From a bacterium (GTDB taxonomy: Bacteria > Gemmatimonadota > Gemmatimonadetes > Gemmatimonadales > Gemmatimonadaceae), in contig JAKAJN010000001.1 in NCBI GenBank assembly GCA_021813725.1, positions 12,990-76,989 of the forward strand: a DNA stretch of 64,000 bases, in the 5' to 3' direction. The position numbers were made by a program, and so were the translations under genes. Positions within the stretch are counted from its first letter, which is position 1. Each line of letters starts with the position of its first letter. Below, piece after piece: positions 12,852 to 48,202 of the stretch. The notes under the pieces are model-generated. The model did no database searches and was not told where the DNA came from. It saw only the letters and a list, made by a program, of their open reading frames with translations.

Positions 12852-13025
12852 ATGGCGAACGCACAGGACCAGCGGGTATCTGGCGCGGTATGGTGGTGGG
12901 GGGCGGCGGTTGTGACGCTTGTCCTCGGCTACGCGGACCTCGCACGCGGGGGCGAAACAATAGCCCCCATCCTGCTCGTGCTGGGCTACTGCGTGTTGGT
13001 GCCGCGGGCGATTCTCGCGCGATAG
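12852..13025 (+). CDS. Possible 57-aa two-helix membrane protein (below the ORF-track size cutoff)
   Basis: The ORF runs from ATG 12852 to TAG 13023-13025 and translates to MANAQDQRVSGAVWWWGAAVVTLVLGYADLARGGETIAPILLVLGYCVLVPRAILAR. A perfect TTGACA lies upstream at 12814-12819. Confidence 0.3.
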   Translation: MANAQDQRVSGAVWWWGAAVVTLVLGYADLARGGETIAPILLVLGYCVLVPRAILAR

Positions 13026-34466: not shown

Positions 34467-34569
34467 GCGTGCGCGAGACGGGCGTGCGAGACGGGCGTGC
34501 GAGAGACGGGCGTGCGAGAGACGGGCGTGCGAGAGACGGGCGTGCGAGAGACGGGCGTGCGAGAGACGG
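34467..34569. repeat. Seven tandem copies of a 15-bp unit GCGTGCGAGAGACGG (the first two are variants) starting at the first nt after the M23 stop
   Basis: Read directly from the sequence. The array fills the gap between the convergent M23 peptidase and fdhD genes. Confidence 0.95.
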
Positions 34570-34577
34570 GCGCGCCC

Positions 34578-35435
34578 TTATCGGTCGGCGGGCGGTCGGT
34601 CGGCGAGCAGGCGCTCGGGATGCGTGTAGACGTCCACGGCGTCGCGCCCGACGACGGCCACGGTGATGCCGGCGCGCTCGGCGAGGCGGATCGCCAGCCC
34701 AGTCGGGCGCGAGCCCGCGGCGATGAGGGGAACACCCGCCACGGCCACCTTCTGCACCAGCTCGTAGCTCAGCCGGCTCGTGACCACCACGAAGCCACGG
34801 GACGGTTCCACGCCGCCTCGCCACAGAGCGCCAAGCAGCTTGTCGACGGCGTTGTGGCGGCCAACATCCTCGCGCACGACCACTGACCCGCCGTTGCCCG
34901 GCACCCACGCTGCCGCGTGGGCGGCGCGGGTGGCCTGATGCACCGTTTGCTGGTCGAAAAGCGCCTCACTGGCACGCTGCAGCGACGCGGCATCGGTCTG
35001 CAGCGTGGCATGCACCACGGGGATGGTGCGCACCACTTCGTCGATGGCCTCCACGCCACAGAGGCCGCATCCGGTGCGCCCGGGAAGGCCGCGCGCCCGC
35101 GCGGCAAGTCGTGCGTGCGCCGCCTCGGGCACGGCGATCCGCAATTCGACGCCGCGGCTATGCTGGGAGATCCGCACGCCCTGCACGTCGGCGGCGGTGG
35201 CCACGATCCCCTCGGAGACCGAGAAGCCGACGGCCAGATCCTCGAAATCGAGCGGCGTGCACATCATCACGGCGTGCGGTCGATTGCCGTAGACCATGGC
35301 CACCGGTACTTCCTCGGCCAGATGGCCTTCCCCCGCCGTCGCGCTGTCGCCCACGATGCGCAGGAAGGGACGCGGCGCATGCGGCCCGCCGTAGCCGAGC
35401 CCGGGGTCGGCGCCGAGCACGTAATCCGCGGTCAC
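34578..35435 (-). CDS. fdhD: Formate dehydrogenase accessory sulfurtransferase FdhD
   Basis: VAMVYGNRPHAVMMCTPLDFEDLAVGF, GCGLCG and REDVGRHNAVDKLLG are present. The GTG at 35435 overlaps the upstream stop (GTGA). Confidence 0.85.
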   Translation of the reverse strand: MTADYVLGADPGLGYGGPHAPRPFLRIVGDSATAGEGHLAEEVPVAMVYGNRPHAVMMCTPLDFEDLAVGFSVSEGIVATAADVQGVRISQHSRGVELRIAVPEAAHARLAARARGLPGRTGCGLCGVEAIDEVVRTIPVVHATLQTDAASLQRASEALFDQQTVHQATRAAHAAAWVPGNGGSVVVREDVGRHNAVDKLLGALWRGGVEPSRGFVVVTSRLSYELVQKVAVAGVPLIAAGSRPTGLAIRLAERAGITVAVVGRDAVDVYTHPERLLADRPPADR

Positions 35436-36418
35436 TCGGCGGCTCGCGCCGGGGCGGTCGAGGCGGTCGCCGCCTCCGGCTGCACGTGCTGCCAGCCGAA
35501 CCGCCCTTTGATGCATAGGTTACCTTGCGTAATACCATGCGCGAACGGCGACGTCGCCTTCACGATCACGTTGTCCTGCACGTGCAGGCTCACGGTGCAA
35601 CCGACGCCGCAGTACGGGCAGATCGTGTCGGTCACGGCCTGCTCCTCCGGCCGCCAGGCGCCGGCGGCGCGCAGGTCGAACTCGGGCACCGCCATCAGCG
35701 CCCCCGTCGGGCAGACGGCCACGCAATTGCCGCAATACACGCAGGCCGAATCCGGCAGCCCAACCGAGAGTTCGGTCGAGATGCGCGCGGCGAAACCGCG
35801 TCCGGCGAGGGCGATCGCGAACGAGTTCTGGTGATCGACGCCGCACGCCTGCACGCATCGGTAGCACAGCACGCACTTGGCGTAGTCGCGGACGAACAGT
35901 TCGTTGTCGCGCAGCACCGGCTGCGCCACGGTGGCGGCGTGCGCGGTGTCGGGCGGTTCGTGATGACCGACGCCGACCGCGGCGCGCTCGGCCGTGCTCT
36001 GCGGCTCCGCGCTCGCGCCGAAGCGCTCGGGGTGGCACCCGTACTCGACGAGCAGCTCCGCCATGCCGGGCGTCGTCGACAAGTCCACGCTCGACGCGAG
36101 GAACTCGAGCACCAGACGGCGCGCGTGCCGGACGCGCGGAGAGTTCGTGTGCACCACCATCCCGGCTTCGACTTCGCGGGAGCACGACGGCACCAGCACG
36201 CGGGCGCCCTCGACCTCCACGACGCAGAGCCGGCAGACATTCGCCGGCGTCAACGTCTCCAGAAAGCAGAGCGTCGGAATCTCGAGGCCGGCGGCGCGGC
36301 AGGCCGCAAGGAGGGTCACACCCGCTTCGGCAGTGACCGTGCGGCCGTCGATGGTCAGAGCGACCGGCGGCCGCGACGTGCGCGCCGGGCGCGTGATCGG
36401 AATGAGCGTGGCAGTCAT
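35432..36418 (-). CDS. Formate dehydrogenase Fe-S subunit. It matches the N-terminal part of fused FdsA/NuoG-type subunits, including the Mo-proximal 4Fe-4S domain.
   Basis: A 2Fe-2S domain (LTIDGRTV..CRLCVVEV), 4Fe-4S ferredoxin motifs (CVLCYRCVQAC, CVYCGNCVAVCP) and a MopB-type cluster (CPYCGVGC..26..CIKGRFGW) are present. The ATG at 36418 overlaps the upstream stop (ATGA). Confidence 0.8.
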   Translation of the reverse strand: MTATLIPITRPARTSRPPVALTIDGRTVTAEAGVTLLAACRAAGLEIPTLCFLETLTPANVCRLCVVEVEGARVLVPSCSREVEAGMVVHTNSPRVRHARRLVLEFLASSVDLSTTPGMAELLVEYGCHPERFGASAEPQSTAERAAVGVGHHEPPDTAHAATVAQPVLRDNELFVRDYAKCVLCYRCVQACGVDHQNSFAIALAGRGFAARISTELSVGLPDSACVYCGNCVAVCPTGALMAVPEFDLRAAGAWRPEEQAVTDTICPYCGVGCTVSLHVQDNVIVKATSPFAHGITQGNLCIKGRFGWQHVQPEAATASTAPARAAE

Positions 36419-38334
36419 TGGGCGGTCGTCGCAAAGAGTCCGAGCCGGCGAACCGCGGAGTCGACGGCCGCTGCCGCCGACTGTCCGAGCCCGCAGATCG
36501 ATGCGTCGCGCATCGCGCGCCCGATGTCGTCGAGCAGAGCCAGCTCCGCGGTGACACCGCCGAGCGGCGCACCGGTCGCGAGACGGTGCAGCGCCTCTTC
36601 CTGCCGCACCGTGCCGACGCGGCACGGGACGCACTGGCCGCACGACTCATCGCGGAAGAAGGCCGCAATGCGGAGGACGGCTTCACGCAGATCGTCCGGA
36701 TCGTCGAACGCCATGATCACGCCGGACCCGAGCGTGGCGTCGGCGGCGCGTGCGTGCTCGAGCGTCAGCGGCAGGTCCGTCTCGTCGGCCCTGATGAATC
36801 CGCCCGCCGCGCCACCGAGCAGGACCGCGCTCAGGCGAGGCGATACTCCCGCCTGCTGCAGCAGGGCGCGCAGCGATGTGCCGCACGGTGCCTCGTACAC
36901 GCCGGGGCGGGCGACGGCGCCGCTGAGGCAGAAGAGCCGCGTCCCGGTGGACTGCGGCGTGCCCTTGGCCGCGTAGGCGGCGCCACCTTCGAGCACGATG
37001 GGCAGAACGTTCGCGAGCGTCTCGACGTTGTTCACCACGGTGGGCTTGCCGAACAGCCCCACCTGCACCGGGAACGGGGGCTTCGTGCGTGGTTCGCCGC
37101 GCTTCCCCTCGATGGATTCAAAGAGCGCCGTCTCCTCGCCGCAGATGTAGGCACCGGCGCCACGGCGAATCTCGATGTCGAATCGCACGCCGCGTCCCAT
37201 CACGTCGTCGCCGAGCAGACCGGCGGCGCGCGCCGCCTCGACGGCGCCGTGCAGACGCTGGTGTGCCAGCGGATACTCGGCGCGCAGGTAGACGAAGCCC
37301 TTGGTGCTCCCGGTCGCGAACCCCGCAATGGTCATCGCTTCAACGACGGCGAACGGATCGCCGGCGATCAACACGCGATCCTTGAACGTCCCCGGTTCGC
37401 TCTCGTCTGCGTTGCAGACCACGTAGTGTGGCGTCGCCTCCTGCCGGCGCACCGCGTCCCATTTGCGCCCGGTCGGGAACGCGGCGCCGCCGCGTCCGAC
37501 GAGCCCCGACGCGGTCACCTCGGCAATCACGGCCTCGGCGCCGAGGTCGAGGGCGCGCGCGAGCGCGCGATAGCCGCCCGCGTCGCGATACGCGGCGAGC
37601 GACGTTGGATCCACGACCCCGACACGGCGGAGCAGGACCAGCGAGGCGTCGCCTTGCTGCGGCACGCGCGTGTCGGCCAGCGCATCGGCGCCCGGCGCAG
37701 CGCCCGTCAGGAGCGCGCGGATGACATCGTCGGTGACACCGCCGAGTTGGCGTTCCTCGGGCACCGCGCCGGCGTCGGTGACCAGAACGGCCGGCGCCTG
37801 GTCGCAGAGTCCGAGGCAGGGCGAAGGCATCCACCCTGGCGCTTGCGTCGCGCTTCCGGCGGCGTCGCCCGCCGGGTGGCCCGGCGCGTCTCCCTCTGCC
37901 GCTGTGGCGTGCGCGTGGCCAAGGTGAGCGCCGGCCACTGCCGTGGCCGCGGCGATGACATCTCGCGCGCCGCGATTGCGGCAGCCGATGTCGTCGCAGA
38001 CGTGGACGACGCGCCGTGGACGCGGCGCGGTGGCCAGCAGCGCATAGAAGGTGGCGACACCCCACGCCTCGGCGGGCGGCACGTGGAGTCGCTCGCAGAC
38101 GTAGCGCAGTCCGCCGGGGCTGATCCATCCGTGGCGCGACTGCAGCGCCTGGAGTGCCGGCACAAGCTCGGTGCGACGCTGGCGCATCGCGCGACCGCCA
38201 TGCCCGACGTGCGTGTCGTGCTGCCACTGGTCGCGCGCGCCGCCATGCCAGCGGCTGGTTGGCGCGCCGAGCACGGCATCGACCGCCTCGCGTTCGGCGT
38301 CCGTCGGGTCGGCGTCGGGAAGGCGAATATCCAT
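36415..38334 (-). CDS. Fused NuoE-like/NuoF-like NAD(H)-binding diaphorase subunit (FdsG-FdsB type)
   Basis: NuoE-type cysteines are present (CDDIGC ... CLGLC). NuoF motifs are present (GRGGAAFPTGRKW, YVVCNADESEPGTFKDR, ESCGQCVPCR). The start overlaps the upstream stop (ATGA). Confidence 0.85.
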   Translation of the reverse strand: MDIRLPDADPTDAEREAVDAVLGAPTSRWHGGARDQWQHDTHVGHGGRAMRQRRTELVPALQALQSRHGWISPGGLRYVCERLHVPPAEAWGVATFYALLATAPRPRRVVHVCDDIGCRNRGARDVIAAATAVAGAHLGHAHATAAEGDAPGHPAGDAAGSATQAPGWMPSPCLGLCDQAPAVLVTDAGAVPEERQLGGVTDDVIRALLTGAAPGADALADTRVPQQGDASLVLLRRVGVVDPTSLAAYRDAGGYRALARALDLGAEAVIAEVTASGLVGRGGAAFPTGRKWDAVRRQEATPHYVVCNADESEPGTFKDRVLIAGDPFAVVEAMTIAGFATGSTKGFVYLRAEYPLAHQRLHGAVEAARAAGLLGDDVMGRGVRFDIEIRRGAGAYICGEETALFESIEGKRGEPRTKPPFPVQVGLFGKPTVVNNVETLANVLPIVLEGGAAYAAKGTPQSTGTRLFCLSGAVARPGVYEAPCGTSLRALLQQAGVSPRLSAVLLGGAAGGFIRADETDLPLTLEHARAADATLGSGVIMAFDDPDDLREAVLRIAAFFRDESCGQCVPCRVGTVRQEEALHRLATGAPLGGVTAELALLDDIGRAMRDASICGLGQSAAAAVDSAVRRLGLFATTAQ

Positions 38335-40268
38335 CAGAGCGACTCCTTCCGGCTGCCATTCACCCGCTCCACGCGCACGGCGGCCGACTTGAAGGCGGCC
38401 GTCCCCGACCGATGGTCGTGGGCGTCGTGCGTGAGCAGGTTCGTGTTGACGACATCCGGAGAGTGGAACGTCATGAAGACGAGGCCCGCGCGCAGGCCGT
38501 GATCGACGCGGGCCGGCACGAGCACCGCGCCGCGCCGCGACGAGACGCGCATCACGTCGCCGTCGCGGACTTCGAGCCGCGCCGCGTCCTCGGGCGACAA
38601 GTCAATGGTCTCTTCGGTGTGCAGCGGCGATTGGTACGCGCCGGTCTGTACTCCCGTGTTGTACGACTCCAGGCGGCGTCCGGTGGTGAGCAGGAACGGG
38701 AAGTCGGCGTCCGGCACTTCGTACGGCATCGACGGTTGCACGACCGAGAACGGGACTCGCGGTCCGCGCAGCGGCGTCTCCCAGAGCCGCCCGTGCAGGA
38801 AGGCCTCGCCCGGGTGCGACTCGTCGGGGCAGGGCCACTGCAGTCCACCATGCGTGGCGAGGCGCTCATAGCTCATTCCGCCCGCCAGATGCGGCGCCAC
38901 CACGCGGAACTCGTTCCAGACTTGCTCCGCATTCGGCGCGCCGATGTCTACGCCGAGCCGGCTGGCAAGTTCGTTGAAGATCCACAACTCGTCGCGCGCC
39001 CCCGCCGGCGGTTCCTTCGCCTTGCGGATGCGCTGCACCCGGCGCTCGGAGTTGGTGACGGTGCCGTCCGCCTCGCACCAACTTGCGGTAGCGGGCAGGA
39101 CCACGTGGGCGAGCTTCGCCGTCGCCGTCAGAAAGATCTCCTGGACGACCAGGTGATCGAGCCGGCCGAGCGCGTCGGCCACGCGGTGACCGTCGGCGTC
39201 GCTCTGCACCGGATTCTCGCCCGCGCAGAGCAGGGCAGACATCTCACCGTCGGCCATCGCCTCGAGCATTTCGGTCAGGTTCCGGCCGTGCTTGGGCTGG
39301 ATCGGCACGCCGTAGTGGCGCTCGAAGCGGGCGCGCGTGTCGTCGTTGAGGATGTCCTGGAATCCCGGCAGGCGGTTGGGCAGCGCCCCCATATCACCGC
39401 CGCCTTGCACGTTGTTCTGGCCGCGCAACGGATTGCAGCCACACGCCCAGCGGCCCACATGCCCCGTGAGCAGGGCCAGGTTGATGAGCGCCAGCACGTT
39501 GTCCACCGAGTTGTGATGCTCGGTGATGCCCAGCGTCCACGCGATCATGGCCTTGTCGGCCGTGGCGAAGGTGTGCGCCGCCTCGCGGATCACGGCCGCC
39601 GGCACGCCGGTGAGCCGCTCACCCTCGGCGAGGGTGTACGGCTCGACCGCGGCGGCGTACGCCTCGAAGCCCGTGGTCGCGTGTTCAATGAATGTGCGGT
39701 GGGCAAGCCCCGCGTGGATGATTTCGCGCGCGAGGGTGTTGGAGAGCGCCACGTCGCTCCCCGAGTGCAGCCCCATCCAGACGTCGGCCCAGGCGGCCGA
39801 CGCGGTGCGGCGCGGGTCCATCACATAGAGCCGCGTGCCGCGATGCACGCCTTTCAGCAGGTGGTGGAACCAGATCGGATGCGCATGGCGCGCGTTGGAG
39901 CCCCACAGGAACACGACGTCCGCGTCCTCCACCTCGGCATACGAGTTGGTGGACCCGCCCGCTCCAAAGACCGTCGCCAGACCGACGACGCTAGGTGCGT
40001 GTCACGTTCGGTTGCAGCTGTCGATGTTGTTCGTGCGGAAGGCGACGCGCGCGAGCTTCTGCGCGAGGTAGTTCATCTCGTTCGTCGACTTCGAGCAGCT
40101 GAAGATGCCCACCGCGTCCGGGCCGCGCGTGTCGAGCACGCGGCGAAAGCCGTCGGCGGCCGCGTCGAGCGCTTCGTTCCACGTCGACTCGTGCAGGGTA
40201 CCGTGCCGGCGCACGAGGGGAACGGTCAGGCGGGCGTAGGCACCGCTGGAAGCGTAGGGAGAGGTCAT
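38334..40268 (-). CDS. fdhA: Selenocysteine-containing formate dehydrogenase catalytic (Mo/W-bisPGD) subunit lacking its own N-terminal Fe-S domains. It has an in-frame TGA at 40004-40002.
   Basis: Track ORFs 40002..40268 and 38334..39932 join in frame to give ..NNIDSCNRT-[TGA]-HAPSVVGLATVFGAGG... This is the conserved Sec/Cys position of FdhF/FdsA-type enzymes. A MopB core and a C-terminal molybdopterin-binding domain follow. Confidence 0.85.
39972..39990 (-). promoter_or_regulatory. SECIS-like hairpin in the mRNA: CGUCGUC-GGUCU-GGCGACG, beginning 11 nt after the UGA
   Basis: A 7-bp stem was folded by hand. The GGUCU loop and the 11-nt spacing resemble the E. coli fdhF SECIS as I recall it. 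Confidence 0.6.
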
Positions 40269-40390
40269 GGCACAGGCGGGCTGGCAGGCCCGGGCAGAGT
40301 GGGAATCCTTGGAGTCTTGCCTTGGTACCTGCTGGCGGCAAGGGCTGGCGACCGATCAACGTCGTGTCGCCCTGCTACGTTTCAGCACGC

Positions 40391-42187
40391 ATGCTTTCCT
40401 GGCTTCTTGGCCTCGTCGCCGGCACGGCTGCGGCGGCAGCGCTCTACGGTCCGCACCTCCCCACTGGCGGCTATCGCCGCGCCCTCGTTGCGCTGCGCGC
40501 GGTCGCCGTTGCGCTGATCGTCGCGCTGCTGCTCGACGCACCGCTTGGCGCGCGCGTCGCGCCGCGGCCGTTGACGGCGCTCGACGTCTCGGCCAGTTGG
40601 GGACAAGGCGGCGCCGGGCGATTCGCCGAGGCGGTCACGCGGGCACGACGCGCCGCGGGCGACGTGGTGCTCTTCGGCGATTCACTGCGCGTCGGGCCTC
40701 CGCCGTCCGTCCCCAGCGATGCGCAGACGCACGTTGGCCCGGCGGTGGACCGGGCCTCGGCGCTGGGGCGGCCGCTCCGAGTGATCACCGACGGTCAACT
40801 GGCCGATCCGGAAGCGCTCGCCTCGCTGCCGGCGGGGTCAACGGTGGAGGTGCTTCCCGCGCCGCTTGCCGTGGACGTCGCGGTGCAGTCGCTCGACCTG
40901 CCCCCCAGCGCGGCGCCCGGCGACACCATCGACCTGCGGGCGCTCGTCGTGAGCGCGGGCACTGCGGTGCCGGCCGTCACGATGGCGGCGCGGCTTGCCG
41001 ACGGCACGGTGTTGGCCACGGCGCCGCTCGGCGCGCTGGCACCGTGGAGCGAACGCGAATGGCGTGCGCGCGTGCGCGTGCCGGAGCGGCGTGGCGCGCT
41101 GGTGGTGCAGGTGGCCGCGACCGCGGCCGGCGACGCGCAGGCGCGCAACGATACGGTCACCACCGTGCTCGACCTGCGGGGCGGGCCGTCCGCGGTGTTC
41201 GTGTCGACCGCGCCGGACGAGGATGCGCGCTACGCCCTGGCCCTGATGCGCGGCGCGCTCGCTTTCGGGGTGAAGGGCTACCTGCGCGTCGCGCCGGGGC
41301 AGTGGCGCGAGGACGGGACGCTGTCGCGCGTGGACGAAGGGGCGGTGCGCGAAGCGCTCGCGCGCGCCCCCCTTGCGGTATTACACGGTGATACGTCATT
41401 GTTTGGCACCCCGCGGGCCATCGGCCGGGGCGCGCTCGCCCTCGTGCCGGCGCCCGATGCCGACGCCGGCGAGTATTTCACGGAGACGGCCGGGGCGTCG
41501 CCGCTGGCGCCAGCCCTCGCGGGCGTACCCTGGGACTCGCTCCCCCCCGTGCTCGTCGGTCCGGCACCCGTCGGCACCAATTGGACCGCGCTGGGCGCCC
41601 GTCGGGCACGGCGCTTCGACGAGCGCACCGTGGTTGCGGGCTACGACGCGCCGCGTCGCGTCGCCGTGCTGCCGGTGCGTGGACTCTGGCGGTGGCAGTT
41701 CCGCGGCGGCCGTTCCGCCGATGCGTTCGCGGCGCTCTGGGGCGGTGTATTCGACTGGCTCGCCGAAGGTGGTGTCGAGGAGCGTGCCGTGCTCGTCTCG
41801 TCGCCGTGGGTGCGGGAGGGCGATCCGATCACGTGGCGCCGCGGGGCCACGGCCGATTCGGCCGTCGTGGTGCGACTGCGTCGCGATGGCGCCCGAGGTG
41901 AAACCGTGGATACGCTTCGCTACTCAGACGCGGCGGGCGTTGCGACCTCGCCTCCGCTTCCGGCGGGCATCTGGCGGGCTTCGGTGCAGGGCGGCGACGT
42001 CGCCTTCGCGGTGAATGCGTCGTCCGAGTGGCTACCACGCCGCCCCATCGTGTCGCGCGGTGCGGTTCCCGGCGTGGGCGCCGCGGGCGCGCGCCCCAGC
42101 GTGCGCGATCAATGGTGGTGGTTCGCGCTGGCGCTCGCCCTGCTCTGCGCGGAGTGGTGGATGCGGCGTCGGATCGGCCTGCGGTAG
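40391..42187 (+). CDS. Membrane protein with an N-terminal double-TM region and a C-terminal TM helix; function unknown
   Basis: MLSWLLGLVAGTAAAAAL..ALVALRAVAVALIVALLL is at the N-terminus and WWWFALALALLCAEWW at the C-terminus. The start was chosen at the internal ATG. Confidence 0.55.
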   Translation: MLSWLLGLVAGTAAAAALYGPHLPTGGYRRALVALRAVAVALIVALLLDAPLGARVAPRPLTALDVSASWGQGGAGRFAEAVTRARRAAGDVVLFGDSLRVGPPPSVPSDAQTHVGPAVDRASALGRPLRVITDGQLADPEALASLPAGSTVEVLPAPLAVDVAVQSLDLPPSAAPGDTIDLRALVVSAGTAVPAVTMAARLADGTVLATAPLGALAPWSEREWRARVRVPERRGALVVQVAATAAGDAQARNDTVTTVLDLRGGPSAVFVSTAPDEDARYALALMRGALAFGVKGYLRVAPGQWREDGTLSRVDEGAVREALARAPLAVLHGDTSLFGTPRAIGRGALALVPAPDADAGEYFTETAGASPLAPALAGVPWDSLPPVLVGPAPVGTNWTALGARRARRFDERTVVAGYDAPRRVAVLPVRGLWRWQFRGGRSADAFAALWGGVFDWLAEGGVEERAVLVSSPWVREGDPITWRRGATADSAVVVRLRRDGARGETVDTLRYSDAAGVATSPPLPAGIWRASVQGGDVAFAVNASSEWLPRRPIVSRGAVPGVGAAGARPSVRDQWWWFALALALLCAEWWMRRRIGLR

Positions 42188-43547: not shown

Positions 43548-45410
43548 ATGTGGCGTGAGGAAGCGCCCCCCGCCTTGGATGCCGTTCACGAGATTCTCGG
43601 ATCCCACGAACGCGACCCCGGCGAGCTGCTGCAGGTGCTCATCAAGGTGCAGCACTGCTACCACTACGTGCCGGACGGCGCGGTGGCGCTGATCGCCGAA
43701 CACCTGCGGGTCACGCGCGCCCATGTGCGCGGCGTCACCGGATTCTACTCGTTCCTCAGCGACCACTATCTGGGCGAGTACGTCGTGTATTGCAGCGACA
43801 ACATCACGGATCGCATGCAGGGGAGCACGGGGCTCGCCACGTATCTCTGCAACCGCCTCAACGTAAAGTTGGGCGACACGCGTGCCGACGGGCGCGTCAG
43901 TGTGCACTACACCTCGTGCACCGGCCTGTGCGATCAGGGGCCGGCGGCGCTGGTCAACGGCCTGGCCGTGACGCGCCTCACGCGGCTGCGGATGGACTTG
44001 ATCGCCGAGCTCATCAACAAGCGCGCGCCGCTCGGGACGTGGCCCTCGGAGCTCTTCCTGGTGGAGGACAACTTCCGGCGGTCGGACGTGATGTTTCGGC
44101 GCTCCTTCGAGCCCGGCGCGGCGCTGCAGGCGGCGATGCGCCGGGGCGGCGACGACACACTGCGCGACATCCAGCACGAGGAGGCCGTGGATCCGTCGTC
44201 AGGCCATGCCTGGCGCCGCGGTGCCGACGAGACGCTCAAGGAACTCTATCGCTCGGACCTGCGCGGCCGCGGTGGGGCAGGCTTCAAGGCGGCGATCAAG
44301 TGGGAGACGTGCCGCGACATCTCCGCGCCGGAGCGGTACGTCGTCTGCAACGCCGACGAGGGTGAACCCGGCACGTTCAAGGATCGCGTGCTTCTCACCA
44401 CGTACACGGACATGGTCTTCGAGGGCATGACGGTCTGCGGCTATGTGGTCGGCGCGACGCGCGGCATCCTCTACATTCGGCAGGAGTACTGGTACCTCAA
44501 GTCGCACCTCGAGGAGGTCATTGCGCGGCGGCGCGACGCGAACCTGCTCGGTCGCAACATCCTCGGCACCGGCTTCGCGTTCGACATAGACATTCACTGG
44601 GGGGCGGGGGCGTACATCGCCGGGATGGAGACGGCGCTCATCGAGAGCATCGAGGGGCGCCGCGCCAAGCCGCGCAAGCGCTGGCCCCTACCCGTGGTCG
44701 CCGGCCTCAACCGCCGTCCCACGGTCGTCAACAACGTCGAGACCTTCGCTGCGGCGGCGATGATCGCCCTGAAGGGCGGCGCCTGGTTCGCCGGGCACGG
44801 CACCGCGCATTCGGCGGGGACGAAGCTCTTCTGCGTCTCCGGCGACTGCGAGCGTCCGGGAATCTACGAGTATCCGTTCGGCGTCAGCGTGCGGGAGGTG
44901 CTGCGCGACTGCGGCGGACTCGACGCGCAGGCCGTGCAGGTCAGCGGGCCGTCGGGCGTGACGATCACGCGCATCGAGTTCGATCGCAACCTGGCGTTCG
45001 AGGACCTGTCGACGGTCGGGACGTTCATGATCTTCGGCCCGCAGCGCGACCTGTTTGACGTCGTCTGCAACTTCACGCACTTCTTCCGGCACGAGAGCTG
45101 CGGACTGTGCACGCCGTGCCGCGTGGGCACCAGCCTGCTGGCGAACCTCGTGGACAAGGTGGCGGCGGGAAAGGGGAGTCCGATGGACATCGCCGAGGTC
45201 GAGCGCATCAGCCAACTGCTCAAGACCACGGCGCACTGCGGCCTCGGACAGACCGCGCCGAACCACCTGATCGACAGCCTGCTGAAGTTCCGCGCCGAGT
45301 GGGACAAGCGGATGGTGACCACCGACTTCGTGCCGGCCTTCGATCTCGATGCTGCGCTCCACGAAGCGCGTCAGCTGACCGGGCGCGACGACGCCCTGGC
45401 GCACTTGTGA
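43548..45410 (+). CDS. hoxF: NAD-reducing [NiFe] hydrogenase diaphorase subunit HoxF (NuoE-like + NuoF-like)
   Basis: The ATG is preceded by AGGGAG. GRGGAGFKAAIKW, YVVCNADEGEPGTFKDR and ESCGLCTPCR are present. Confidence 0.85.
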   Translation: MWREEAPPALDAVHEILGSHERDPGELLQVLIKVQHCYHYVPDGAVALIAEHLRVTRAHVRGVTGFYSFLSDHYLGEYVVYCSDNITDRMQGSTGLATYLCNRLNVKLGDTRADGRVSVHYTSCTGLCDQGPAALVNGLAVTRLTRLRMDLIAELINKRAPLGTWPSELFLVEDNFRRSDVMFRRSFEPGAALQAAMRRGGDDTLRDIQHEEAVDPSSGHAWRRGADETLKELYRSDLRGRGGAGFKAAIKWETCRDISAPERYVVCNADEGEPGTFKDRVLLTTYTDMVFEGMTVCGYVVGATRGILYIRQEYWYLKSHLEEVIARRRDANLLGRNILGTGFAFDIDIHWGAGAYIAGMETALIESIEGRRAKPRKRWPLPVVAGLNRRPTVVNNVETFAAAAMIALKGGAWFAGHGTAHSAGTKLFCVSGDCERPGIYEYPFGVSVREVLRDCGGLDAQAVQVSGPSGVTITRIEFDRNLAFEDLSTVGTFMIFGPQRDLFDVVCNFTHFFRHESCGLCTPCRVGTSLLANLVDKVAAGKGSPMDIAEVERISQLLKTTAHCGLGQTAPNHLIDSLLKFRAEWDKRMVTTDFVPAFDLDAALHEARQLTGRDDALAHL

Positions 45411-45420
45411 GGACCATACG

Positions 45421-46161
45421 ATGAGTCCGGACCCCAGGAAGACCTTTCGGCTGGACGGTCGCGAGATTCCGTTCCGCGAGGGGCAGTCGGTGTTCGACGC
45501 GGCGATGGCCGCCGGCGTCTACATCCCGCACCTGTGCCACAATCCCGACTTTGAACCGCACAGCAGCTGCCGGCTCTGCACGGTGATCGTGAACGGGCGC
45601 CCGTTCGCGTCGTGCACGCAGCCGGCGGTGGCGGGGCAGGATGTGAAGAGTGACACGCCCGAACTCAACGAGATGCGGCGCTCGCTCACGGAGATGCTGC
45701 TGGTGGAGGGCAACCACTACTGCCCCGCCTGCGAGAAGAGCGGAAGCTGTCGTTTGCAGGCCACCGCTTACGCGCTGGGGCTGCAGGACACCCACTTCCC
45801 GCAGTTCTTTCCGCATCGTGACGTGGATGCCTCGCATCCCGACATCATCCTCGACCGCGACCGCTGCATTCTGTGCGGCCTCTGCGTCCGCATCAGCCGC
45901 ACGGTGGACCGCAAGAACGTCTTTGCCATGACGGGGCGGGGGATCGCCACGACGATCGTCGTGGATTCTCCCTCGGGCCTGCTCGCCGACAGCCGCGTGT
46001 CGCGTGACGACGAGTCGGTGAAGCACTGTCCGGTCGGCGCCCTGATGATGAAGGGCGAGGCGTTCAAGATCCCCATTGGGGAGCGCCCGTACGACAAGGC
46101 ACTCATCTCGGAAGACAGCGTGGCGCAATTCCAGGCGCGGGAGGCCGCCGCCCATGGCTAG
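45421..46161 (+). CDS. hoxU: Diaphorase Fe-S subunit HoxU (NuoG N-terminal-like)
   Basis: CHNPDFEPHSSCRLC (2Fe-2S), HYCPACEKSGSC and CILCGLCVRIS are present. Confidence 0.85.
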   Translation: MSPDPRKTFRLDGREIPFREGQSVFDAAMAAGVYIPHLCHNPDFEPHSSCRLCTVIVNGRPFASCTQPAVAGQDVKSDTPELNEMRRSLTEMLLVEGNHYCPACEKSGSCRLQATAYALGLQDTHFPQFFPHRDVDASHPDIILDRDRCILCGLCVRISRTVDRKNVFAMTGRGIATTIVVDSPSGLLADSRVSRDDESVKHCPVGALMMKGEAFKIPIGERPYDKALISEDSVAQFQAREAAAHG

Positions 46162-46696
46162 CAAGCGCAAGATCGCCACCTGCTCGCTGGCGGGATGCTT
46201 CGGATGCCACATGTCGCTGCTCGACATCGACGAGCGGCTCCTCGACCTGCTCGAGCTGGCCGAGTTCGACCGCAGTCCGATCAACGACATCAAGGAGATC
46301 AAGGGGATGGTGGACATCGGGCTCGTCGAGGGCGGCCTGTGCAATGCCGAGACGGTGCGCGTGCTCCATCACTTCCGCGACCACTGCCGCGTGCTCGTGT
46401 CGGTGGGCGAATGCGCGCTGACCGGCGGCATTCCGTCCATGCGCAACCATCACAGCCTGAAGGCCTGCCTCGAGGAGTCATACATCCGCGGCGTCGGAGT
46501 CGAGAATGCGCACATCCCCGACGACCCCGAACTGCCGCTGCTGCTCGACAAGGTCTATCCGCTGCACGAGGTGGTGACGGTGGACTATCACGTCCCGGGG
46601 TGCCCTCCATCGGCCGATGCGCTCTGGCACGTGCTGAGCGCACTCGTCGCGGGGCGCGACCCGCACCTGCCCCCTGCGCTGCTGAAGTACGACTGA
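46154..46696 (+). CDS. hoxY: [NiFe] hydrogenase small subunit HoxY
   Basis: MASKRKIATCSLAGCFGCHMSLLD and GCPP near the C-terminus are present. The gene overlaps hoxU by 8 nt. Confidence 0.85.
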   Translation: MASKRKIATCSLAGCFGCHMSLLDIDERLLDLLELAEFDRSPINDIKEIKGMVDIGLVEGGLCNAETVRVLHHFRDHCRVLVSVGECALTGGIPSMRNHHSLKACLEESYIRGVGVENAHIPDDPELPLLLDKVYPLHEVVTVDYHVPGCPPSADALWHVLSALVAGRDPHLPPALLKYD

Positions 46697-46708
46697 CGGG
46701 AGACGTCC

Positions 46709-48202
46709 GTGACTCACGTGCTGGAGACCGCCGCCCATCCCCGCGCCCTGCGCCGCGTGGCCATCGAACCGCTCACGCGGGTGGAAGGGCACGGCAAGGT
46801 GACGATTCTCCTCGACGAGCAGCACCGCGTGCATCAGGCACGGCTGCATATCGTCGAGTTCCGCGGCTTCGAGAAATTCATCCAGGGCCGGCCCTACTGG
46901 GAGGTGCCGGTGCTGGTGCAGCGGCTCTGCGGCATCTGCCCCGTGAGCCACCATCTGGCCGCCGGCAAGGCGGTGGACATGCTGGTTGGCGCGCGTCAAC
47001 TCACGCCGAGCGCCGAGAAGCTCCGCCGCCTGCTGCACAAGGGGCAGCTGCTGCAGTCGCATGCGCTGCATTTCTTCCACCTCGCGAGCCCCGACCTGCT
47101 CTTCGGCTTCGAGGCGGAGCCGGAGCGGCGCAACATCATCGGCGTGATCGGCGAGCATCCCGAACTCGCCGTGCGCGGCGTGAAGCTCCGCAAGTTCGGG
47201 CAGGAGGTCATCCGCGCCGTCGCGGGCAAGCGCATCCACGGCACCGCGTGCGTGCCCGGCGGGATGAACAAGCCGCTGGCCGCCGCCGATCGCGACGCCC
47301 TGCGCGGCGAGGTCGCGCAGATCGTCCGGTGGAGCCAGGAGGCGGTGCGGACGTGTCGCGACCTGCTCGACGCGAGTCCGCATGCGCCGATCTTTGGCGT
47401 CTTTCCGTCGAACTTCCTCAGTCTCATCCGGCCCGACGGCGCGCTCGACTTCTACGACGGCGGGTTGCGCGCCCGCAGTGCGAGCGGGGAGCTGATCTTC
47501 GACCACGTCGACTACACGCACTACAACCGCTTCATCCACGAAGAAGTGAAGTCGTGGTCGTACATGAAATTCCCCTTCATCATCAACCTCGGCGATGAGG
47601 ACGGCTGGTACCGCGTCGGTCCGCTGGCGCGACTGAACAACTGCGACGCACTCGACACCGTCTTCGCCGAGCACGAGCGGCAGCTATTCCGACAGGCGGC
47701 CAACGGCGGGATGCAGCATGCCACGCTGGCGTACCACTGGGCGCGGATGATCGAAATGCTCCACGCCGCGGAGGGGATCGAGCGCCTGCTGGACGATCCG
47801 GAGATCCTCGGCACCGACCTCGTGACGCGCGGCGAGCGTGCCTTCGAGGGGGTGGGCGTAATCGAGGCGCCGCGCGGCACGCTGTTCCATCACTATCGCG
47901 TGGACGAGAACGACGTCGTGGTGCGCGCCAACCTCATTGTCAGCACCACCAACAACAACCAGGCGATGAACGAGGCGGTGCGGCAGGTGGCGGCCAGCTA
48001 TCTCGACGGCCAGCAGCTCACGGAAGGGTTGCTCAATCACATCGAGGTGGCTGTGCGCGCCTTCGATCCGTGCCTCTCGTGCGCGACGCACGCGTTGGGC
48101 CGCATGCCACTGCGGGTGGAGCTCGTGGATGCGGACGGGGTGGTGGTGGACCGGCTGGTCAAGGGAAGCGACGGCCGGTGCACGCGGGACGACGCCGTCT
48201 GA
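46709..48202 (+). CDS. hoxH: [NiFe] hydrogenase large subunit HoxH
   Basis: RVEGHGKV, RLCGICPVSHH and the C-terminal DPCLSCATH are present. Confidence 0.9.
   Translation: MTHVLETAAHPRALRRVAIEPLTRVEGHGKVTILLDEQHRVHQARLHIVEFRGFEKFIQGRPYWEVPVLVQRLCGICPVSHHLAAGKAVDMLVGARQLTPSAEKLRRLLHKGQLLQSHALHFFHLASPDLLFGFEAEPERRNIIGVIGEHPELAVRGVKLRKFGQEVIRAVAGKRIHGTACVPGGMNKPLAAADRDALRGEVAQIVRWSQEAVRTCRDLLDASPHAPIFGVFPSNFLSLIRPDGALDFYDGGLRARSASGELIFDHVDYTHYNRFIHEEVKSWSYMKFPFIINLGDEDGWYRVGPLARLNNCDALDTVFAEHERQLFRQAANGGMQHATLAYHWARMIEMLHAAEGIERLLDDPEILGTDLVTRGERAFEGVGVIEAPRGTLFHHYRVDENDVVVRANLIVSTTNNNQAMNEAVRQVAASYLDGQQLTEGLLNHIEVAVRAFDPCLSCATHALGRMPLRVELVDADGVVVDRLVKGSDGRCTRDDAV

Follow-up and report, generated by a model that had tools for sequence, protein, structure and literature searches.

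Metal formate dehydrogenases (FDHs) are intensively studied for CO2 reduction, and for those linked to nicotinamide adenine dinucleotide (NAD), recent reviews and the ForCE paper describe a fused catalytic alpha subunit alone, all characterized enzymes being fused (PMC13397495). Here, we analyze a 64,000-nucleotide (nt) stretch of a Gemmatimonadaceae metagenome-assembled genome (MAG) (GenBank GCA_021813725.1, contig JAKAJN010000001.1, forward-strand positions 12,990 to 76,989), referred to as “the window” and numbered from its first letter. It carries an operon in which alpha is divided between two genes: the segment that binds the proximal 4Fe-4S cluster (FS0) is part of a separate Fe-S protein (gamma), and the gene for the Mo-binding remainder (alpha) precedes that for a NuoE-NuoF fusion (beta). 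We consider it highly likely that the operon is functional and encodes a cytoplasmic, NAD(H)-linked, selenocysteine (Sec)-containing FDH with a molybdenum or tungsten bis-pyranopterin guanine dinucleotide (Mo/W-bisPGD) cofactor and three subunits, of the FDH3 (FdhA3B3C3) type.

The split architecture is already in print, with protein-level support in one cultured strain. FDH3 of Actinomycetospora chiangmaiensis DSM 45062 consists of FdhA3, FdhB3, and FdhC3 (Rohwerder et al. 2020, PMC7176365, Suppl. Fig. S4). FdhA3 (640 amino acids [aa], with Sec as U80) is homologous to the C-terminal metallopterin domain of the fused alpha alone, FdhB3 is a 614-aa NuoE/NuoF fusion, and the Fe-S protein of 316 aa is “separate but homologous” (PMC7176365). 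The enzyme is cytoplasmic with NAD+ as its predicted acceptor; its three subunits were detected by proteomics at 2.2- to 3.1-fold higher levels on 2-hydroxyisobutyrate, a substrate that yields formate, and formate removal by the strain required selenium (PMC7176365). The window operon, from another phylum, is alike in each part: an alpha of 644 aa with U89, lacking N-terminal Fe-S domains as FdhA3 does, a beta of 639 aa, and a separate Fe-S protein of 328 aa. The FDH3 paper is silent on FS0 travelling with the Fe-S protein, on gene order, on loss of the A4 cluster, and on distribution. In the literature beyond it, we found no described split and no FS0 supplied in trans, and nothing on a permuted gene order, A4 loss, or the breadth of the split type. 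The small protein already appears in some database records as “NAD-dependent formate dehydrogenase iron-sulfur protein.”

Among fused enzymes, FdsABG(D) of Rhodobacter capsulatus and Cupriavidus necator (PDB 6TGA and 6TG9) and MeFDH1 of Methylorubrum extorquens (7E5Z and 7VW6) share with the window operon the bisPGD cofactor, FS0, two 4Fe-4S clusters, a 2Fe-2S cluster, the NuoF 4Fe-4S cluster, and flavin mononucleotide (FMN); among PDB entries, their chains rank first for gamma and also match alpha strongly. The beta subunit of MeFDH1 is also a NuoE-NuoF fusion (PMC7176365 supplement). They differ in that alpha is one chain of ~950 to 990 aa, whereas the alpha encoded in the window is broken between the positions that correspond to FdsA residues 302 and 308; in having a Cys ligand where the window has Sec; and in a gene order that is not permuted. 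No fdsD was seen in the window operon, unlike in FdsABG(D). The first 250 residues of R. capsulatus FdsA form a HoxU-like module and the remaining 700 an FdhF-like one (PMC7171172). Its ligands for the A4 cluster (His117, Cys121, Cys124, and Cys130) are missing from the window gamma.

FdhF-type enzymes share the Sec-His and Arg active-site motifs. The Mo subunit has its best PDB match (525 bits) in FdhF of the Thermoanaerobacter kivui hydrogen-dependent CO2 reductase (7QV7). This FdhF and Escherichia coli FdhH (1AA6/1FDO) carry FS0 in their own first ~60 residues, whereas the window alpha begins at the position that corresponds to FdhH residue 61 (alignment to residues 61 to 692). A divided catalytic chain has another example in the MopB superfamily: in formylmethanofuran dehydrogenase of Methanothermobacter wolfeii, a domain belonging to the catalytic chain exists as a subunit by itself (PMC7171172). 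There (FwdB/FwdD) the C-terminal domain is split off, whereas in the window it is the N-terminal cluster-binding segment, still fused to the electron-transfer module.

Organization of the operon

Four tightly packed minus-strand genes lie within 34578 to 40268, and their open reading frames (ORFs) and Pfam and TIGR domains bear out the order proposed in the initial annotation: Mo core, NuoE-NuoF fusion, 328-aa Fe-S protein, and fdhD, the last of which ends (at 34578) outside the interval first marked, 35432 to 40268. In addition, 83 related loci from at least eight phyla, including some on long-read contigs, were analyzed in detail. The features are as follows.

38334..40268, minus strand: fdhA-type catalytic subunit (alpha), 644 aa; PF00384, PF01568, TIGR01591 positions 52 to 672
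40002..40004, minus strand: selenocysteine codon 89 (TGA), motif CNRT-U-HAPSV; same position in 66/66 loci
39972..39990, minus strand: hairpin CGUCGUC-GGUCU-GGCGACG, like a selenocysteine insertion sequence (SECIS), starting 11 nt after the UGA
36415..38334, minus strand: NuoE-NuoF fusion (beta), 639 aa; PF01257, PF01512, PF10531, PF10589
35432..36418, minus strand: Fe-S protein (gamma), 328 aa; Fer2_4, two ferredoxin-type 4Fe-4S, Molybdop_Fe4S4
36065..36106, minus strand: A4 site, here ASSVDLSTTPG, with no ligands; fused FdsA has H-x3-C-x2-C-x5-C
35480..35638, minus strand: FS0 (Molybdop_Fe4S4) domain of gamma, aa 261 to 313; C267, C270, C274, C302, K304
34578..35435, minus strand: fdhD, Mo-cofactor sulfurtransferase/chaperone; TIGR00129 at 201 bits (cut-off, 140.9)

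The junctions had all been described as 4-nt overlaps. That is correct for NuoEF/FeS (ATGA), but Mo/NuoEF overlaps by 1 nt (TGATG), and FeS/fdhD reads GTGA only if fdhD starts at GTG 35435 (285 aa) rather than at ATG 35516, the start of the longest ORF (312 aa).

Beta combines a thioredoxin-like 2Fe-2S domain, an FMN/NAD(H) site, an SLBB domain, and the N3-type 4Fe-4S cluster of NuoF, and it scores 423 bits against TIGR01959 (nuoF_fam). It has NuoE fused and ends with PF10589, without the C-terminal 2x[4Fe-4S] domain of bifurcating HydB/HylB or a separate NuoE-like subunit.

Selenocysteine in the catalytic subunit

The alpha frame (40268..38334, 645 codons) is interrupted by one in-frame TGA at 40004..40002 and is a single ORF only if this codon is decoded as Sec; a standard ORF caller gives two ORFs. 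The motif around it, CNRT-U-HAPSV, is the Sec/Cys-His active-site motif of FDHs (Sec89-His90), and the conserved active-site Arg is retained within PLRGQNNVQG. The Pfam domains of alpha are Molybdopterin and Molydop_binding alone, and neither an Fe-S domain nor a Tat signal was found in it. Against TIGR01591 (Fdh-alpha) it scores 621.5 bits, under the cut-off of 666.25; gamma residues 265 to 313 match positions 1 to 49 of the same model.

The TGA is present in all 66 related loci that cover the Sec site, together with the hairpin. The SECIS hairpin resembles that of E. coli fdhF in shape and 11-nt spacing, and several lineages pair GTC->GTG with GCG->GCC, both changes being synonymous and the base pair preserved. 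Profile searches found SelA (544 bits) and SelB (315 bits) in the genome, both above cut-offs. Three cultured actinomycetes, Amycolatopsis, Nocardiopsis dassonvillei, and Lentzea xinjiangensis, have Cys instead of Sec (CNRT-C-HAPSV) with the same split and gene order, and the split is therefore not tied to Sec.

Position of the cut and cluster content of gamma

Alignment to FdsA and FdhH, the check that the initial annotation had proposed, gives a clean break point. Gamma aa 15 to 311 align with R. capsulatus FdsA 21 to 302 and alpha aa 13 to 639 with FdsA 308 to 937; together, the two pieces cover FdsA end to end, with residues 303 to 307 (five) alone unmatched. A split between Fe-S and Mo parts had been proposed, and this is right as to the break itself. 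Given the module boundaries of the R. capsulatus enzyme, however, the cut does not fall at the junction of the HoxU-like and FdhF-like modules; it lies ~55 residues beyond it, after the FS0 segment of the FdhF-like part. The gamma gene stops 15 codons past the FS0 domain. The proximal ligands C267, C270, C274, and C302 and the adjacent K304 are on gamma, and alpha is without any cluster; domain and PDB alignments uphold the placement of the proximal 4Fe-4S cluster and the Mo active site on separate polypeptides.

Gamma proteins have 16 invariant Cys, corresponding to one 2Fe-2S cluster, two 4Fe-4S clusters, and FS0 (Cys and Lys invariance was scored in 88 and 49 family members). The H-x3-C-x2-C-x5-C motif of A4 is replaced by an LASSVDLSTTP-like sequence in 88/88 split-family members and is likewise missing from a fused relative, P0254. 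In the R. capsulatus enzyme, A4 lies outside the path from bisMGD to FMN, at the dimer interface (PMC7171172). From its ligand pattern, we read the gamma family as having lost this off-pathway, His-ligated [4Fe-4S] cluster, with the main electron chain apparently intact, and the loss suggests a different oligomeric state.

In FdhH, domain I is built from the first ~60 residues and from segments further along the chain. If this holds, the C terminus of gamma would have to complement alpha in the manner of a protein fragment. Rejoining of the two chains by a split intein or similar element was considered and rejected: gamma tails are 0 to 61 low-complexity residues in 80/83 loci, and the N-terminal leader of alpha is short (12 residues in the window copy), leaving no room for intein halves. 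Two further sets of candidates were set aside. An apparent second, distant split family proved to be a truncated fused protein (P0261, 318 aa, 40% identity, ending RLTQPLIRRSD), and matches of 360 to 440 aa ending in ...ARL are fused Sec forms cut at the UGA by gene callers.

Conservation and distribution

Among the matches listed in a search with the 328-aa gamma, 120 clusters have 66 to 76% identity and lengths of ~300 to 365 aa, and all 120 carry PF04879 and none PF00384. The same genes occur in the same order in three contexts from independent assemblies, two of them on long contigs. A scan of one genome per species confirmed at least 577 split loci. The best 80 of these (at least 577) come from Gemmatimonadota, Acidobacteriota, Actinomycetota, Chloroflexota, Eisenbacteria, Rokubacteria, and Planctomycetota, plus one bin labeled Saccharimonadales. 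The window copy is an ordinary member of a little-studied type common to hundreds of species, and nothing sets it apart.

The survey of orthologous operons that the initial annotation had called for found the same fission across the related loci. The view taken in that annotation that no frameshift or assembly artifact is involved holds as well: the Fe-S frame stops past the GWQ(H/F)V motif, soon after FS0, in 83/83 loci. The tail beyond the motif is 0 to 61 residues in 80 of these; the other three have longer tails, one being an apparent fusion to FdhD. In a Limnocylindrales MAG (L078:1193-~3050), the Fe-S frame continues 270 residues into FdhD, an apparent gamma-FdhD fusion or frameshift, and in a Terriglobia MAG (L050:7001-~9230), the Fe-S protein has a 424-residue C-terminal extension. 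In each locus with sufficient upstream sequence, the Mo gene comes first, then nuoEF and the Fe-S gene, all on one strand; none of the 83 has the Mo gene downstream of the Fe-S gene. The nuoEF/FeS junction is a 4-nt overlap in 50/76 scored loci. Mo and nuoEF overlap by 1 nt in 17 loci and are within 50 nt (≤50 nt) in most others; in seven (L058, L064, L069, L076, L084, L092, and L102), the Mo gene is 1.3 to 4.2 kb upstream of nuoEF, a spacing that points to one or more extra genes between alpha and beta. The place of fdhD is not constant, and some loci have no fdhD.

The three cultured actinomycetes share the layout (Amycolatopsis, L105:2341-4257; N. dassonvillei, L106:1866-3809; L. xinjiangensis, L107:1309-3234), and the N. 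dassonvillei operon sits on a finished chromosome. Homologues in the Pseudonocardiaceae (Lentzea, Amycolatopsis, and Saccharopolyspora) have 56 to 60% identity. The Amycolatopsis Fe-S subunit is shortened to 285 aa.

Origin of the split

Two fused homologues of ~905 aa, P0270 and P0254, match both halves collinearly, with 37 to 40% identity in the Fe-S part and 43% in the Mo part, in agreement with the proposal that the window gene order is permuted relative to a fused alpha. A maximum likelihood tree built on the Fe-S part places the 88 split sequences in a single clade, apart from nine fused comparators, on a long branch with a Shimodaira-Hasegawa-like approximate likelihood ratio test value (SH-aLRT) of 100. 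Phylum labels change 12 times on this tree, compared with a minimum of 7 and with 45.7 for shuffled labels. The single clade and the clustering by phylum fit a single ancient fission, after which the operon descended largely vertically and was sometimes transferred. In this event, a fused alpha gene of ~905 aa would have been cut and reordered, and the split form would since have been passed on mainly inside phyla. A candidate route to the permuted order is a tandem duplication of a beta-alpha unit with subsequent loss of the ends. The Fe-S protein of the window (35432-36418, minus strand) has a terminal branch of 0.55 substitutions per site, compared with a family median of 0.2, and is more diverged than its nearest relatives.

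We regard it as rather doubtful, if conceivable, that the cut and the catalytic-gene-first order were selected rather than neutral, and that these enzymes are the first recognized Mo/W-bisPGD group in which FS0 and the Lys come in trans from the electron-transfer subunit, so that domain I is completed by natural fragment complementation. If true, one possible advantage is that a cluster-free alpha could undergo cofactor or Sec maturation independently. Another is that failed UGA read-through would yield an 88-aa peptide in the split form, whereas in fused Sec forms it would yield a cluster-bearing fragment of ~360 to 440 aa able to occupy the diaphorase. The retention of split and order with Cys in the three cultured actinomycetes tells against a Sec-specific version of this idea.

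Proposed enzyme and alternative explanations

We infer that alpha, beta, and gamma form one complex. Formate would be oxidized at Mo(W)-Sec89 of alpha, a subunit that itself lacks any Fe-S cluster. The last ~55 residues of gamma, with FS0 and the conserved Lys, would dock in trans into alpha, at the site usually taken by the N-terminal segment of FdhF or FdsA. Electrons would travel by way of gamma, with its two ferredoxin-type [4Fe-4S] clusters and its [2Fe-2S] cluster, to the NuoF-type [4Fe-4S] cluster and FMN of beta and on to NAD+; this direction of catalysis and this nucleotide specificity are predictions. FdhD would sulfurate and insert the cofactor. No fused paralogue able to supply FS0 was found in the genome.

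Several points weigh against this assignment. The window operon is read from its gene sequences, and its likeness to FDH3 from the published description of that enzyme. The initial annotation had asked whether split homologues are already common and characterized; they are common and in print, but without biochemical or structural characterization, and we found no purification or structure of a split-type complex in the literature, for which reason the docking of alpha and gamma is a prediction. An AlphaFold2 monomer model of gamma (49-sequence alignment) has a mean predicted local distance difference test score (pLDDT) of 61.7, with the ferredoxin region below 40; Foldseek with this model places FdsA-type chains first, a weak agreement at a template modeling (TM) score of about 0.38. 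A promoter and terminator scan of the operon gave nothing above shuffled expectation, with no recognizable sigma-70 promoter or Shine-Dalgarno sequence before the first (Mo) gene. Neither SelD nor tRNA-Sec (ARAGORN and RF01852) was found in the genome, which is in 237 contigs and ~94% complete, and we treat their absence as a gap in the data from a fragmented assembly. The best SelD candidate is a ThiL-like protein, and the tRNA-Sec candidates are all tRNA-Ser. The contigs concerned in the SelA, SelB, SelD, and tRNA-Sec results are C38, C78, and C55 of the genome.

The alternative that survives best accepts the same complex and gives it another physiological role, either NADH-dependent CO2 reduction or electron bifurcation with ferredoxin; we judge this improbable. 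Metal FDHs are reversible, one relative has a formate-tetrahydrofolate ligase gene directly downstream, and a bidirectional-type hydrogenase is encoded alongside the operon in the window. Yet the carriers are mostly soil Gemmatimonadota, Acidobacteriota, and Actinomycetota, and the A. chiangmaiensis enzyme is linked to formate removal; bifurcation is further disfavored by the missing HydB/HylB-type extension of beta.

It is less probable still that the pieces are not one enzyme, with NuoEF and the Fe-S protein forming a stand-alone diaphorase or electron-transfer module (for a Hox hydrogenase, for example) and the Mo protein having another partner. An operon for an NAD-linked [NiFe] hydrogenase, which includes separate NuoE-NuoF and HoxU-like genes, does lie 3 kb away, and FS0-like domains persist in NuoG without function. 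Against this, the Hox operon has its own HoxF and HoxU, the Mo protein would be left without a cluster for onward electrons and has no other FS0-bearing, FdsA-like partner in the genome, the Mo gene stays upstream of NuoEF and FeS on the same strand wherever the locus reaches far enough, in a few cases across an insert of ~2 kb, and the four FS0 Cys and the Lys are invariant. Finally, that the arrangement is an assembly error, a frameshift, or a recent pseudogenizing rearrangement of a fused fdsA is scarcely credible, for although the MAG is fragmented (237 contigs) and its Mo gene appears as two ORFs to a standard caller, the same stop, order, and junctions recur across 83 independent loci, among them some on long-read contigs and one on a finished chromosome, what looks like a “break” in the Mo gene is a conserved TGA for Sec accompanied by a SECIS, and all cluster ligands are invariant.

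The observation made in the initial annotation is confirmed, and its central interpretation is supported.

Neighboring genes

The hydrogenase operon (43548-48202, plus strand) is on the strand opposite to the FDH operon. It encodes a second NuoE-NuoF fusion (620 aa), a NiFeSe_Hases large subunit, and a HoxU-like 246-aa protein that retains the PF10588 His-ligated cluster motif; a 467-aa ORF (46195..47598) has no Pfam match and overlaps the large-subunit ORF. Next to the start of the Mo gene, the gap between its ATG and a divergent 621-aa ORF (40322..42187, plus strand) is only about 53 bp (40269-40321). At the other end, between fdhD and a convergent M23 peptidase gene, the translations of 34467-34569 repeat RETGV and SRTPV, a pattern that indicates a short tandem DNA repeat with a 15-bp unit.

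Implications

The split operon would represent a widespread natural form of FDH in which the catalytic subunit is cluster-free and the proximal cluster comes from a partner. The split marks a point at which the MopB fold can be cut and provides a modular layout for engineering. The remaining interest lies in the proposed mechanism, delivery of the proximal cluster in trans. In abundant soil phyla, the split FDH is probably a main route of formate oxidation.

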